64,000 bases of DNA from the NCBI GenBank assembly GCA_963422645.2, contig CAXXVO010000005.1, positions 160,001 to 224,000 of the forward strand. Reading direction: 5' to 3'. This DNA is from Alphaproteobacteria bacterium (GTDB lineage Bacteria > Pseudomonadota > Alphaproteobacteria > UBA828). Positions 37,714-41,809 of this stretch are shown one piece after another. Below the pieces are notes generated by a model. That model searched no databases, had not been told where the DNA came from, and worked only from the letters and a program-made list of their open reading frames with translations. The stretch's first letter is position 1. Each line of letters starts with the position of its first letter. A program made the translations under genes and the position numbers.

Positions 37714-37806
37714 CAGCGCGCGAACACGGAGCGCCACACCCCGCTTAATCGCGGCACGCTCGTGTGCCACAGTAGGGCTCGCACTCTGGGACAGGGAGGG
37801 TGCGGG

Positions 37807-38684
37807 ATGACAACGGGCGGCACAGAGCGGCCCAGCGGCGTTCGTTACGAGCCCAATGATAGACCGCCGCCGGCGCTCGCCGGTGGGCTCGGCCTGCAGC
37901 TCGCTATCCTCTGCATCGCCGGCGTCGCACTGACGCCCGCAATCGTGGTCCGCGCCGCCGGCGGGACAGAGTCTTATCTCTCGTGGGCGGTCTTCGGCGC
38001 CGTCCTGGTCAGCGGCATCACCTCGGTCCTGCAAGCGGTCCGCGTCGGGCGGATCGGGGCCGGCTACGTCCTCGTCATGGGCACCTCCGGGGCTTTCATC
38101 GCGATTTGTGTGGGCGCGATTGCCCAAGGCGGGCCGGCGATGCTCGCCACGCTGGTGGTGATCTCCTCATTCTTCCAATTCCTGCTCGCGTGGCGGCTTT
38201 CGCTGCTCCGGCGAATCCTGACACCAACGGTCTCGGGCACTGTCATCATGCTGATACCGGTGACGGTGATGCCGATCGTCTTCGACATGCTGACCCACGT
38301 GCCTGAGGGCACGCCGGCGCTGGCCGCGCCGCTCTCGGCGCTTGTGACGGCGTTGGCGATCTGCGCTATCTCGCTGAAGGCGCAGGGTGTGCTGCGCCTC
38401 TGGGGGCCGGTGATCGGCATCGTCGCCGGCTGCGGGGTTGCCGGGTACTTCGGCCTTTACGATGTCCGCAGCATCGCTGCGGCAACATGGGTCGGCCTGC
38501 CGCAAGGCGGATGGCCGGGCTTCGACCTCGACTTCGGGCCGGTCTTCTGGGGACTGCTGCCGGGTTTCGTGTTCGTGACCCTGGTCGGCGCCATCGAGAC
38601 GGTGGGCGACGGCATCGCCATCCAGCGGGTCTCCTGGCGCAAGCCGCGGGCGGTGGACTTTCGCGCAGTGCAGGGCGCGGTCGG
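37807..38684 (+). pseudogene. NCS2 (xanthine/uracil permease) family gene, 5' part, interrupted by the serine-recombinase element
   Basis: YEPNDRPP...GLQ, TPAIV, SGITSVLQ, ETVGD; breaks at DFRAVQGAV. Confidence 0.88.
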
Positions 38685-40335
38685 GACGCCCTGAACGCAA
38701 AAGGCAACCTTCGCCTTCGGTGCTGTGGTTGCCGGGTTTCGACGGGTCTGGACCGCCGCCTGGCGATCCCGAGATTGGGATTGAATGGCGAATGGTGATT
38801 TTGTCCTCGGTGACCAACACCTCCTTCACGATGAGCCGGACGATGCGCTGCCGTTCGGCGATGTCCAGGGTTTCGGCGGACGAGTGCAGCCGCGCCAGAA
38901 AGCCGGTCAGCGTCTCGGCGAGCCGGAGATAGGTCTCGCGATCCTTCGCCCGATCGACGGTGGATTGCAGTTCGCGATTCAGAGCCTGATCCTGACGACG
39001 GAGCTCGGGCGTTCTGTCGCGCAGTTCATCGATTGTAATCAACTCCTCCTGATAGGCGTTGACCAGGCGGTCGATGCTTTTTCGGACCCGGATCAGACGG
39101 TGCCGCAGGTCGTTCTCGCGCTGCTGGTTTGGATCGGAAGCGCGGGCCGCCTGTAGTCGCCGGTCGATCTCGGCGCCGATCAGTGCTGGATCCTCGAGCA
39201 GGCGGACCACTTCGCCCCAGACGACGTCATCGAGCAAGTCCTGGCGCACCGGCCGACTGTCGCACACCGGTCCGTTGAGATGGCGCCAAGAGTCAGAACC
39301 CAGGCAGCGATAATAGGAGATCTTGCGGGCACTCGTCTGGGCCGATGTGCGAGACAGCGCGTAGCCGCATTTGCCGCACGAGACCAGTCCCTGGAGCACG
39401 CTGGGCGTCTTCGTGCGACGCGGCGCGTGGATCTTGTTCATCTCCAGCCGCTCTTCGGCCAGGGCGAAGGTCTCTTCGCTGACGATCGCCGGCACCGGGA
39501 TCTCGATCCACTCCTCACGCGGTTTTTCGTGACCGCCGGTCGTGCCGCTGGCCACGCCGCGGCGCAGGCGCAGAGGACGTGTCACACATTTACGCGGCAT
39601 CTGGCGGGTCTTGCCGAAACAGGCTTTCCCCTTGTACGCCGGATTGCGGAGCATCGCCCACACCGTCGAGCGTTCCCAGCGCGAGCGCCCGGTGGAGGTG
39701 GGTACCGCGCGCTCATTGAGCCTGCAGGTGATCGCGCCGATGCTCATGTGATCGCAGGTGTAGCAGCGGTAAACCTCGCGAACCACCGACGCCTGCGGCT
39801 CGACGATTTCGTAGAACGCATCGCTGTCCGGGGTTTTCTTGTGGTAGCGGTAGCCATAGGGCGCGCCGCCGAGGACGGCGATTTCGCCGCGTCGCGCCCG
39901 ATGTCGCTTGCCGCGCCGGGAACGCTCCAGGATTTGCGCGCGCTCGTATTCCGCAATCATGCCCTGGAACTGGACGAGCAGATGATCTTCCGGGGTTTCC
40001 ATCGACGGCGCTCTCAAGAACACGGTCTCGACGCCCTGACGGGCCAGCTCCTCGATGATCAGAACCTGGTAGGCATAGCGCCGGCTCATACGGTCCGGGG
40101 CATGGACCAGCACCGTGTCGATGCGCCCTTCCGCGGCGAGATCCCTGACCCGCTCGAGCCCCGGGCGTTCGAGAACGGCGCCGGTATAGCCGTCATCTTC
40201 AATGATCATGTCGGGCGCGACGCTGTAACCGTGGTCCTCGGCGTAGGCGATCAGGGCCTCGGTCTGGCTCGCTATCGTGTTGTCATCTCTCTGCCGCTCG
40301 CCGGAGACCCGCGCGTAAATGGCTGCGATCTTCAT
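38167..40335 (-). CDS. Large serine recombinase (resolvase, recombinase and Zn-ribbon domains); the last ~170 aa are read-through into target DNA
   Basis: YARVS catalytic serine, DDGYTG..ERPGL, DRMSR, CGKCG...YYRC...C and a coiled coil. No stop codon inside the element. Confidence 0.92.
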   Translation of the reverse strand: MKIAAIYARVSGERQRDDNTIASQTEALIAYAEDHGYSVAPDMIIEDDGYTGAVLERPGLERVRDLAAEGRIDTVLVHAPDRMSRRYAYQVLIIEELARQGVETVFLRAPSMETPEDHLLVQFQGMIAEYERAQILERSRRGKRHRARRGEIAVLGGAPYGYRYHKKTPDSDAFYEIVEPQASVVREVYRCYTCDHMSIGAITCRLNERAVPTSTGRSRWERSTVWAMLRNPAYKGKACFGKTRQMPRKCVTRPLRLRRGVASGTTGGHEKPREEWIEIPVPAIVSEETFALAEERLEMNKIHAPRRTKTPSVLQGLVSCGKCGYALSRTSAQTSARKISYYRCLGSDSWRHLNGPVCDSRPVRQDLLDDVVWGEVVRLLEDPALIGAEIDRRLQAARASDPNQQRENDLRHRLIRVRKSIDRLVNAYQEELITIDELRDRTPELRRQDQALNRELQSTVDRAKDRETYLRLAETLTGFLARLHSSAETLDIAERQRIVRLIVKEVLVTEDKITIRHSIPISGSPGGGPDPSKPGNHSTEGEGCLLRSGRPDRALHCAKVHRPRLAPGDPLDGDAVAHRLDGADQGHEHETRQQSPEDRPEVEVEARPSALRQADPCCRSDAADIVKAEVPGNPAAGDDADHRPPEAQHTLRLQRDSADRQRRHKRRERRGQRRRALRHVGQHVEDDRHHRHRYQHDDSARDRWCQDSPEQRKPPREQELEE

Positions 40336-40489
40336 GGTCGTCTCCTATGTCCTGCGCTCGGACCGGGATTTTGTGAGTTTGATCGGGCACCAGGATCGCG
40401 TAGGCGTTGTGGAGTTTGGCGTCGAGCAGACGATCGAAGGCATAAGCGAGGTGAACCGTGGGCCGAGCGCCCAAGCGACGTTCAGCCAT
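40283..40489 (-). CDS. Small hypothetical protein of the LSR element
   Basis: 68 aa, overlapping both neighbours (VHLAYAFDRLL..KL..AYAILVP). Confidence 0.6.
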   Translation of the reverse strand: MAERRLGARPTVHLAYAFDRLLDAKLHNAYAILVPDQTHKIPVRAQDIGDDHEDRSHLRAGLRRAAER

Positions 40490-40811
40490 GCCGATCCGCG
40501 TCCGATAAAAAGCGTCTCAGCGCCCGCGCGACGATCTCCCCGATGGAGTGGCCGCTGCTCCTGGCGTGGGCTCGCAAGGTCTCCGCCAGAGTGCCTGGAA
40601 TCTTGATGGTGATCGGGATCAGCTCTTCGGTCGGCTCGGCCGGCTGGCCCATGGCGCGCGCGTCCTGGACGTAGCGATAGGACTGACGCTGCGACAGCCC
40701 GAAGCGCTGCGACAGCCGTGCCACGGCTTCGCTCGCCGTGGCGCCCTGGGCGAGCAGCGTGTAGGCGGCATTGAGCCGCTCGACCTTCTGGGATCTTGTT
40801 GACCGGATCAT
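40482..40811 (-). CDS. HTH plus ribbon-helix-helix-like DNA-binding protein of the LSR element
   Basis: LSQRFGLSQRQSYRYV (HTH-like) and ITIKIPGTLAETLRAHA...SIGEIVARAL (RHH-like). Confidence 0.72.
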   Translation of the reverse strand: MIRSTRSQKVERLNAAYTLLAQGATASEAVARLSQRFGLSQRQSYRYVQDARAMGQPAEPTEELIPITIKIPGTLAETLRAHARSSGHSIGEIVARALRRFLSDADRHG

Positions 40812-40822
40812 TTGCCATAAGA

Positions 40823-40852
40823 ATATTACCGTTTGCGGCGCAAGTCAGTCAA
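40823..40852 (-). promoter_or_regulatory. Putative sigma70 promoter of the LSR element operon
   Basis: Minus strand TTGACT-18bp-TAATAT just upstream of ATG 40811. Confidence 0.5.
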
Positions 40853-40918
40853 GGGACGGTCTCGCCATTCCACAATCTGACGTTCGAAGCGGAAGTTACC
40901 TTTTGCGTTCAGGGCGTC

Positions 40919-41809
40919 AGCGCGGACGGTGTTGGCAACCTGTTCTCCGGCCTGATGGGAACGGTGCCCAACACCACCTATTCCACCAGCATATCCGTCA
41001 CCGCGCTCACCGGCGTGGGCGCCCGCAGCGTGGGCGTTGCACTCGGAATCGCTTTCGTCGTGGTGGCGTTCATTCCCAAGGCGCTCGCCGTCGTGCTGGC
41101 GATACCGGGGCCGGTTGCGGCGGCCTACATCACCGTGCTGTTGGGGCTGCTCTTCGTGGTCGGCATGAGGATCGTCATCCAGGACGGGGTGGACTACCGC
41201 AAGGGCCTGATCGCCGGCGTGTCCTTCTGGATCGGGGTCGGCTTCCAGAACGGCGTGATCTTTCCCGAGCACGTCTCGGGCATCGCCGGCGGGCTCCTGG
41301 AGAACGGCATGACGGCCGGCGGCATGGCGGCGATTCTGCTCACGCTCTTCGTGGAGCTGACGGCACCCCGCCGACGCCGCATCCAGGCGCCCTTCGAGGT
41401 CGCGTCGCTGCCGAAGATCAGGGAGTTCCTGCAAACCTTCGCTTCCCGCAGCGGCTGGGGCGAGGCGATGGCCCATCGCCTGGATGCTGCCGCCGAGGAG
41501 GCGATCCTGACGCTGCTGCGGCACGAGGAAGAGGAAGAGGCGGAGGGAGCGCCGCACCGGAAGCGCCGCCTGCTACTCACCGCCCACAAGGAAGGCGGCG
41601 CTGCGGTGCTGGAATTCATTGCCGCACCCGGCGAGGAGAACGTGGAGGACCGGATCGCGCTGATGGGCGAGTCCTCCGACGATGCGCCCGAGCGGGAGGT
41701 GTCGCTACGCCTCCTGCGCCACCTCGCGTCCTCTGTCCACCACCAGCAGTATCACGACACGGATATCGTCACGATCCACGTGGAGGCCAGGGCGCCCCGC
41801 GCTAGCTGA
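40919..41809 (+). pseudogene. NCS2 permease 3' part fused to a degenerate HATPase/RsbW-like C-terminal domain
   Basis: Resumes at (S)ADGVGNLFSGLMGTVPNTTYS...TGV; then a soluble tail (SLPKIREFL...RLDAAAEEA...VSLRLLRHLASSVHH). Confidence 0.85.

Follow-up and report, generated by a model that had tools for sequence, protein, structure and literature searches.

The stretch of DNA analysed here (the window) comprises 64,000 nucleotides of contig CAXXVO010000005.1, assembly GCA_963422645.2, from an alphaproteobacterium of the UBA828 lineage, and carries at positions 38685-40918 a 2,234-bp insert that interrupts a Xan_ur_permease gene (positions 263/275 of the profile). An earlier reading of the same letters (the original prediction) had described a mobile element with a large serine recombinase (LSR), a perfect 20-bp inverted repeat extending imperfectly to about 30 bp, three co-oriented open reading frames (ORFs) and unequal bases at its two junctions, and the sequence agrees with that description. 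The terminal inverted repeats measure 30 nt and are 90% complementary, without a mismatch in the outer 20 nt, and the junctions read gtc-GG-repeat on the left and repeat-AG-cgc on the right. Within these limits, three minus-strand ORFs code for a ribbon-helix-helix (RHH) protein, for a short product here called orf68 and for the LSR; this being the whole gene set, the element is, as had been proposed, a cargo-free LSR element of the size of an insertion sequence (IS). The features of the locus, in window coordinates, are the following:

37762..38682, plus strand: 5' portion of the split Xan_ur_permease gene
38683..38684: GG at the left junction, the core native to the target, on the basis of the empty site of public run X4
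38685..38714: left terminal inverted repeat (3' side of the recombinase gene), conserved family-wide
38685..40335 inside the element, minus strand: large serine recombinase gene, start at 40335, about 550 codons, no stop
40283..40489, minus strand: orf68, a conserved 68-aa ORF overlapping the recombinase start
40369..40371: TTT site in orf68, unoccupied in the window copy and the place of IS110-family insertions in three other copies
40482..40811, minus strand: RHH/CopG-like small DNA-binding protein, 109 aa, with a weak Pfam RHH_1 match
40823..40852, minus strand: putative sigma-70-like promoter (TTGACT-18-TAATAT) upstream of the RHH gene
40826..40918, minus strand: conserved coding sequence of a recombinase C-terminal tail, in frame only when the element ends are joined
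40889..40918: right terminal inverted repeat, the RHH-side end, with a boundary identical in all five genomic copies
40919..40920: AG at the right junction, a dinucleotide additional to the target and brought by the element
40921..41809, plus strand: 3' part of the disrupted Xan_ur_permease gene

The recombinase begins with MKIAAIYARVSGERQ, is aligned from position 1 of the Resolvase profile and has all three LSR domains, that is, the resolvase catalytic, recombinase and zinc-ribbon domains (Pfam Resolvase, 7.4e-32; Recombinase, 3.4e-20; Zn_ribbon_recom, 4.3e-10); by analogy, the serine of this initial stretch may be the nucleophile. Its sequence matches in the PDB are SPbeta YokA (5.6e-12), the TP901-1 integrase and the TnpX N-terminal domain. 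In the window copy the recombinase frame meets no stop inside the element, exits via the left repeat and continues to 38167, meaning that the tail of the integrated gene differs from copy to copy. The 109-aa protein matches RHH_1 with an E-value of 6e-4 and 20.1 bits, slightly below the 20.5 cut-off, and its counterpart in NZ_CP126035.1 is annotated as belonging to the CopG family, while a Pfam search with orf68 gave no family. Both small proteins are probably regulators or directionality factors. The promoter scan returned two sites against 0.1 expected, as matches to the consensus only.

The assembly contains five copies of the element at five sites, with identical ends and 0-2 differences over 2,234 bases, which makes the element more than a product of chance; it is multi-copy and, as had been predicted, inserted without a target duplication. 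Their junction dinucleotides, in window orientation, are:

C6 (window): left GG, right AG; permease
C8a: left AT, right AT; reverse transcriptase (RT) fragment
C19: left AA, right AG; IS66 transposase gene
C10: left TG, right AG
C8b: left AT, right AT; RT fragment

Three of the five copies have unmatched central dinucleotides (GG/AG, AA/AG and TG/AG), and in these three (C6, C19 and C10) the right end is followed by AG, C6 and C19 being identical to each other. The flank of C8a matches RVT_1 (E 1.6e-14); the genome has 3 RVT_1 matches in total, all of which flank the two C8 copies, and both RT-motif sites of the assembly are occupied by copies of the element. The RT fragment hosting C8a (C8:632800-633100) reads as fused to the apparent start of a phage-type integrase gene, a fusion that suggests nested insertions.

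The copies have a history of their own. The left flank of C10 and the right flank of C8b (C10:43074; C8:727381-733151; loci L004, L005 and L008) form a single gene in relatives, here called gene X, meaning that the two copies exchanged flanks after insertion. Taken with the loss from the assembly of the left half of a second target (gene Y, see below), this indicates that the copies drive rearrangements. Copies C19, C10 and C8b are moreover interrupted at the same TTT in orf68, 34 nt upstream of the recombinase start, by 1, 3 and 2 head-to-tail units, respectively, of a 1,768-bp IS110-family element. The latter encodes a 426-aa DEDD transposase and is present in about 50 near-identical copies in the genome, none of them in the window; several form head-to-tail arrays of 2-5 units (for example C11:48110-56956, C16:27174-32482 and C10:44758-50068), which is unusual.

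The permease gene as it stood before insertion can be read in relatives and in a public sequencing run. In same-genus genomes the two flanks are separated by exactly 2 nt in 14/14 orthologous loci (six reverse-oriented rows of the table being read by eye), these bases being AG in 5 and GG in 9, a split that did not settle the original dinucleotide of the permease. Run X4, which has the same organism label and derives from another study of an earlier year, holds a 618-nt contig that connects 38683 to 40920 with 0 flank differences; its empty site is GTC-GG-CGC, and the joint omits 2,236 bases rather than 2,234. The occupied left permease junction is present in runs X1 and X5. Near-identical strains thus differ in having or lacking the insertion; GG was the core of the site beforehand, and the right-hand AG is foreign to it. 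The intact flanks in X4 further imply that the insertion is recent and adds 2,236 bp. Two claims made from the window alone were in this way upheld, namely that removal of the insert together with one dinucleotide restores the permease, and that the two junction dinucleotides differ. The window copy is probably a live or very recently live element, a judgement made jointly with the circular intermediate and the unmatched-core exchange proposed below.

A scan with one genome per species found 519 relatives of the element, and the family statistics given here rest on the best 80 of them. These are 61-88% identical and come from Alpha- and Gammaproteobacteria, Acidobacteriota, Binatia, Gemmatimonadota and others, the closest having LSRs 83-88% identical. 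The relatives are 2.2-2.3 kb long and have the same end repeats, with the recombinase frame entering the repeat in each, and tblastn located RHH in 78/80 and orf68 in 78/80 of the loci. The window element follows the same pattern, with its ~2.2 kb, its ends of the form xAC[GT]CCC..ACGCAAAAGGTAAC and its RHH, orf68 and LSR genes. At least five copies of a related element (L014-L018) lie on one Pseudomonadales MAG chromosome, and some of their flanks turn up at other copies as the reverse complement, pointing either to inversions between the copies or to intron targets that are themselves repeated.

The flanks of the relatives are alike across phyla and encode the GTPQGGV-x-SPLLAN motif of group II intron RTs. 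Sixty of the 80 loci could be evaluated (11 were without the box pair and 9 too near a contig end), and the RT motif is restored across the join in 51 of them with a loose motif and in 43 with a strict one. The RT and the LSR are co-oriented at 25 sites and read in opposite senses at 20; the use of both orientations fits a palindromic joined-end site with the palindromic core AT. Group II intron RNA domains adjoin three related elements, and the RefSeq annotation of NZ_CP126035.1, a Bradyrhizobium plasmid, reads in order RT, CopG, recombinase, RT. These loci show that the usual target of the family is the DNA for the GTPQGGV-I-SPLLAN motif of the group II intron RT, with core AT and in either orientation. 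A literature search for LSR elements with intron RT genes as target found no account of one, although supplementary tables (such as those of the LSR database of Durrant et al.) may list the attachment sites of this family.

The window copy does not lie in an RT PQGG-x-x-SP coding motif, its place being the permease gene. In order to compare this and the other non-RT sites with the usual target, a position matrix was built from 45 RT sites and its scores were ranked among all genome positions; a fuzzy genome search with two short target motifs had given hundreds of chance matches in this GC-rich genome, and the matrix was used instead. No unoccupied canonical RT site emerged from the matrix scan of the assembly, where the best score was 12.9 against 41 for the restored C8a site. 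Four targets are look-alikes of the RT motif, with matrix ranks of 8.9e-5 (IS66 transposase gene), 1.2e-4 (permease), 9.3e-4 (gene X) and 1.2e-2 (gene Y). The left arm of the permease target had been thought to resemble the arm of the element's own repeat; it is instead the canonical target that the site, gtGCAGGGCGcGGTc-GG-CgCG...GGCAAC, resembles, within the top 1.2e-4 of genome positions.

The empty forms of the other look-alike sites were also recovered. The site in the IS66 transposase gene reads gcGCAGGGGGccGag-AA-CTtCGCC..., and in more than 100 near-identical copies of that IS the left flank, including AA, passes directly into the right flank without AG. For gene X, relatives L108 and L109 read ...gtttg and then directly cggcgct, the occupied form having TG in the left flank of C10 and AT in the right flank of C8b. 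Each look-alike insertion with a known empty site adds the 2,234-bp element plus 2 bp, with one junction holding the dinucleotide of the target and the other holding one brought by the element. Gene Y has the empty form gagcgtc-AG-cgcgcagc in the three relatives read (two further loci were left out), and its right junction here is AG. Its left half has no BLAST match in the assembly and is represented solely by loose ends of runs X1 and X5, from which the left junction reads ...GGGGAGC followed by gtcGG and the repeat. The right junction of gene Y is present in X4 as well, that is, in a run without the permease insertion, and AG, which stands at the right of the identical copies C6 and C19, is also the native core of this older site.

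Unequal cores are not peculiar to this genome. The 43 strict-motif RT sites of other genomes comprise 25 with equal dinucleotides (AT, GT, GC, AC, AA or AG, which fit a codon for I, V, A, F or L) and 18 with unequal ones, and among the latter the plausibility of the encoded residue assigns the native dinucleotide to the RHH side (4 cases) or to the LSR side (2 cases).

A further property of the family concerns the recombinase gene itself. When the frame is read in silico across the joined ends, a stop is reached 30-32 codons past the joint in 64/66 elements (a tail of 31 codons in the window element), while the tails in the integrated state range from 1 to 203 codons. The tail completed in this way has the consensus ..YLLRSG..NAKGNFxFER.I.GWR....LDLR.K.*, and beyond the repeat its variability at the three codon positions is 0.97/0.81/1.36 (36 distinct elements), the third being the highest, which is a coding signature. 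Such conservation of the frame across the joined ends gives indirect support for a circular intermediate. Since neither the catalytic nor the DNA-binding domains need the tail to be complete, a guess would make the latter a modulator of the recombinase, perhaps of the direction of recombination.

These observations can be brought together in a pathway that starts with excision. The element would leave its site as a circle, whose joined ends would form the palindromic attP ...GGCGTC-NN-GACGCC.... The LSR would make its usual cuts, staggered by 2 nt, at the central dinucleotide of attP and of the target and, unlike the Bxb1-type integrases, would reseal the strands despite differing cores, generating heteroduplex junctions. 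Replication would then resolve the heteroduplex, and as a result a dinucleotide would travel with one end of the element between sites (AG in this genome). The coupling sequences of conjugative transposons with tyrosine recombinases are a parallel to such a dinucleotide carried from the previous home. In the circle, the recombinase gene would be completed with the conserved tail of about 31 aa, which may tilt the enzyme in favour of integration. A circular intermediate with a palindromic attP, together with an exchange that tolerates unmatched cores, is the best explanation of the data and probably the correct one. The original prediction had joined both ideas: its palindromic joined-end site fits what was found, while the exchange between unmatched cores is something that we infer. 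A more complete version is possible, although we would place it somewhat below an even chance: the LSR would complete the exchange between mismatched 2-bp cores, the ends would carry a remembered dinucleotide, and the tail-less (integrated) and full-length (circle) forms of the enzyme would act as an excision/integration switch without a separate directionality factor. Contigs of four public runs show no back-joining joint, and as contigs drop rare forms this is uninformative either way as to the circle junction.

Several points weigh against this pathway. Recombination by Bxb1 is stated to be blocked by mismatched central dinucleotides (in part of PMC5062993), and base pairing of the core is held to drive ligation (in sections of bioRxiv 10.1101/2024.08.23.609471). 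The gene X event, with TG against AT, differs at both core positions, which is hard to accommodate for a ligation that depends on pairing. The flank swaps seen in this genome imply that some unequal pairs elsewhere may result from exchange between copies and not from integration. Moreover, in the three events for which the empty site is sure (permease, IS66 and gene X) the left junction is invariably the one with the native dinucleotide, an outcome that simple segregation would give 1 time in 4. The role attributed to the recombinase tail is, as said, a guess.

Of the alternatives, the one that survives best, and which we nevertheless regard as unlikely, is that the two bases belong to one end of the element (repeat...repeat+NN), with the cuts leaving the target dinucleotide on the far side and no need for mismatched pairing or heteroduplex. 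It would account directly for the constant arrangement just described, native left and extra right, and for the AG at the right end common to three copies. It conflicts, however, with the way serine recombinases are described to cut, symmetrically and with a 2-nt stagger at the site centre (portions of bioRxiv 10.1101/2024.08.23.609471), and with gene Y, whose junctions are GG and AG and whose AG in three relatives puts the native dinucleotide on the right. The RT sites of other genomes, where the native dinucleotide is found on either side (RHH side 4, LSR side 2), speak against it too.

Less probable still is that matched cores are required and that the unequal dinucleotides arose later, by point mutation, gene conversion or flank exchange. 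Exchange of flanks between copies does take place here and in L014, L015 and L018, and the right flanks of C6 and C10 have AGCGCG in common. Yet exchange cannot explain the permease, whose flanks are contiguous in 14/14 relatives and in run X4, nor the IS66 site, contiguous in more than 100 copies; in addition, with 0-2 differences over 2,234 bases between copies, three independent changes confined to the core would be very unlikely. A variant in which the crossover is shifted to the GTC common to the left flank and the right repeat was likewise discarded, because for the permease it needs an AG empty site where X4 has GG, and no shift fits the letters of the IS66 junctions. Finally, that the element is a general multi-target IS with little site preference, as the original prediction described it, is highly improbable: the spread over five different sites within a genome, of which three or four are not in RT genes, would be in line with it, but 51/60 evaluable loci, drawn from many phyla, share a single RT motif as their place (43 with the strict form), and the non-RT sites, including the permease look-alike, resemble that motif far beyond chance.

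The closest functional precedents are the clostridial transposons Tn4451/Tn4453 (TnpX) and Tn5397 (TndX), in which, as in the window element, a large serine recombinase is the transposase. The Tn4451 circle creates a promoter for tnpX, to which the circle-completed gene here would be a parallel. The core of Tn4451 is a fixed GA, whereas the cores of the window-element family are variable and can be unequal. Compared with Tn4451/Tn5397, the window element is cargo-free, measures 2.2 kb, has long near-perfect end repeats that form a palindromic joint, and has an RT coding motif as target. The targets of transposons of this kind reportedly resemble the joint of the circular form, as the title of a 1997 paper by Crellin and Rood has it. 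TnpX-type recombinases excise and integrate without other element-encoded proteins, according to part of PMC2475636, and an excerpt of Durrant et al. (bioRxiv 10.1101/2021.11.05.467528) gives DUF4368 for 63% of the TnpX/TndX multi-targeting clade, while the window element has no Pfam match to DUF4368 at E up to 0.01. The element works most like the TnpX/TndX transposons and is not a member of their clade, as it has no DUF4368, no cargo, other ends and another target.

Phage serine integrases (Bxb1, phiC31, SPbeta SprA) share with it the three-domain enzyme, short sites, a conserved coding motif as target and a 2-bp core; they are stated to require identical central dinucleotides (PMC5062993, in part), and, unlike the window element, they move an entire phage and have an attP that is no perfect palindrome built from the element's own ends. 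The IS607 family (TnpA) is also IS-sized and relies on a serine recombinase without target duplication. According to part of PMC6188088, its members have no terminal inverted repeats, use a small recombinase whose DNA-binding domain is N-terminal, and insert at GG with 2-bp identity; the 30-nt terminal repeats, the three-domain large enzyme and the non-GG cores at most sites set the window element apart from this family. A likeness to the rhizobial y4bA repeats, suggested in the original prediction, found no confirmation: on pNGR234a (NC_000914.2), presumably the plasmid carrying the y4 genes, the best match (E 7e-9) covers the catalytic domain only and no close relative was found, and the literature search for y4bA gave no biology paper.

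A match between the central dinucleotides counts as a fixed rule for serine recombinases and is the basis of orthogonal integrase tools. The natural insertions with exact empty sites described here show junctions that this rule does not predict, and a tolerance of unmatched cores, if true, would matter both for the risk of off-target events and for how integrase tools are designed. The family is besides a clear case of a mobile element living on another, aimed at a protein-coding motif that an intron has little freedom to alter. In this genome one sees the outcome once the usual targets run out, with the element starting to disrupt host genes. The window adds three things to the family picture, namely an off-target insertion whose empty site is known exactly, evidence that the element moved recently, and cores that are unequal. 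A recombinase gene completed only in the circle would be a simple way of controlling direction.

Some minor observations concern the surroundings of the element. The genome is saturated with mobile elements, including an IS66-family element with a 501-aa transposase and more than 100 near-identical copies (for example L123, C22:7600-10600). Inside the window element, contigs of runs X1 and X5 join foreign sequence at loose ends at positions 39861 and 40033, one of which adjoins an internal copy of the repeat tip, GACGCCCTGA (40028-40039); these may be truncated copies or deletions at an internal pseudo-end. The C-terminal part of the permease (41390-41750) gives a weak HATPase_c_2 match of 26.1 bits, below the 27.4 cut-off, and may point to an unusual permease-kinase-like fusion.

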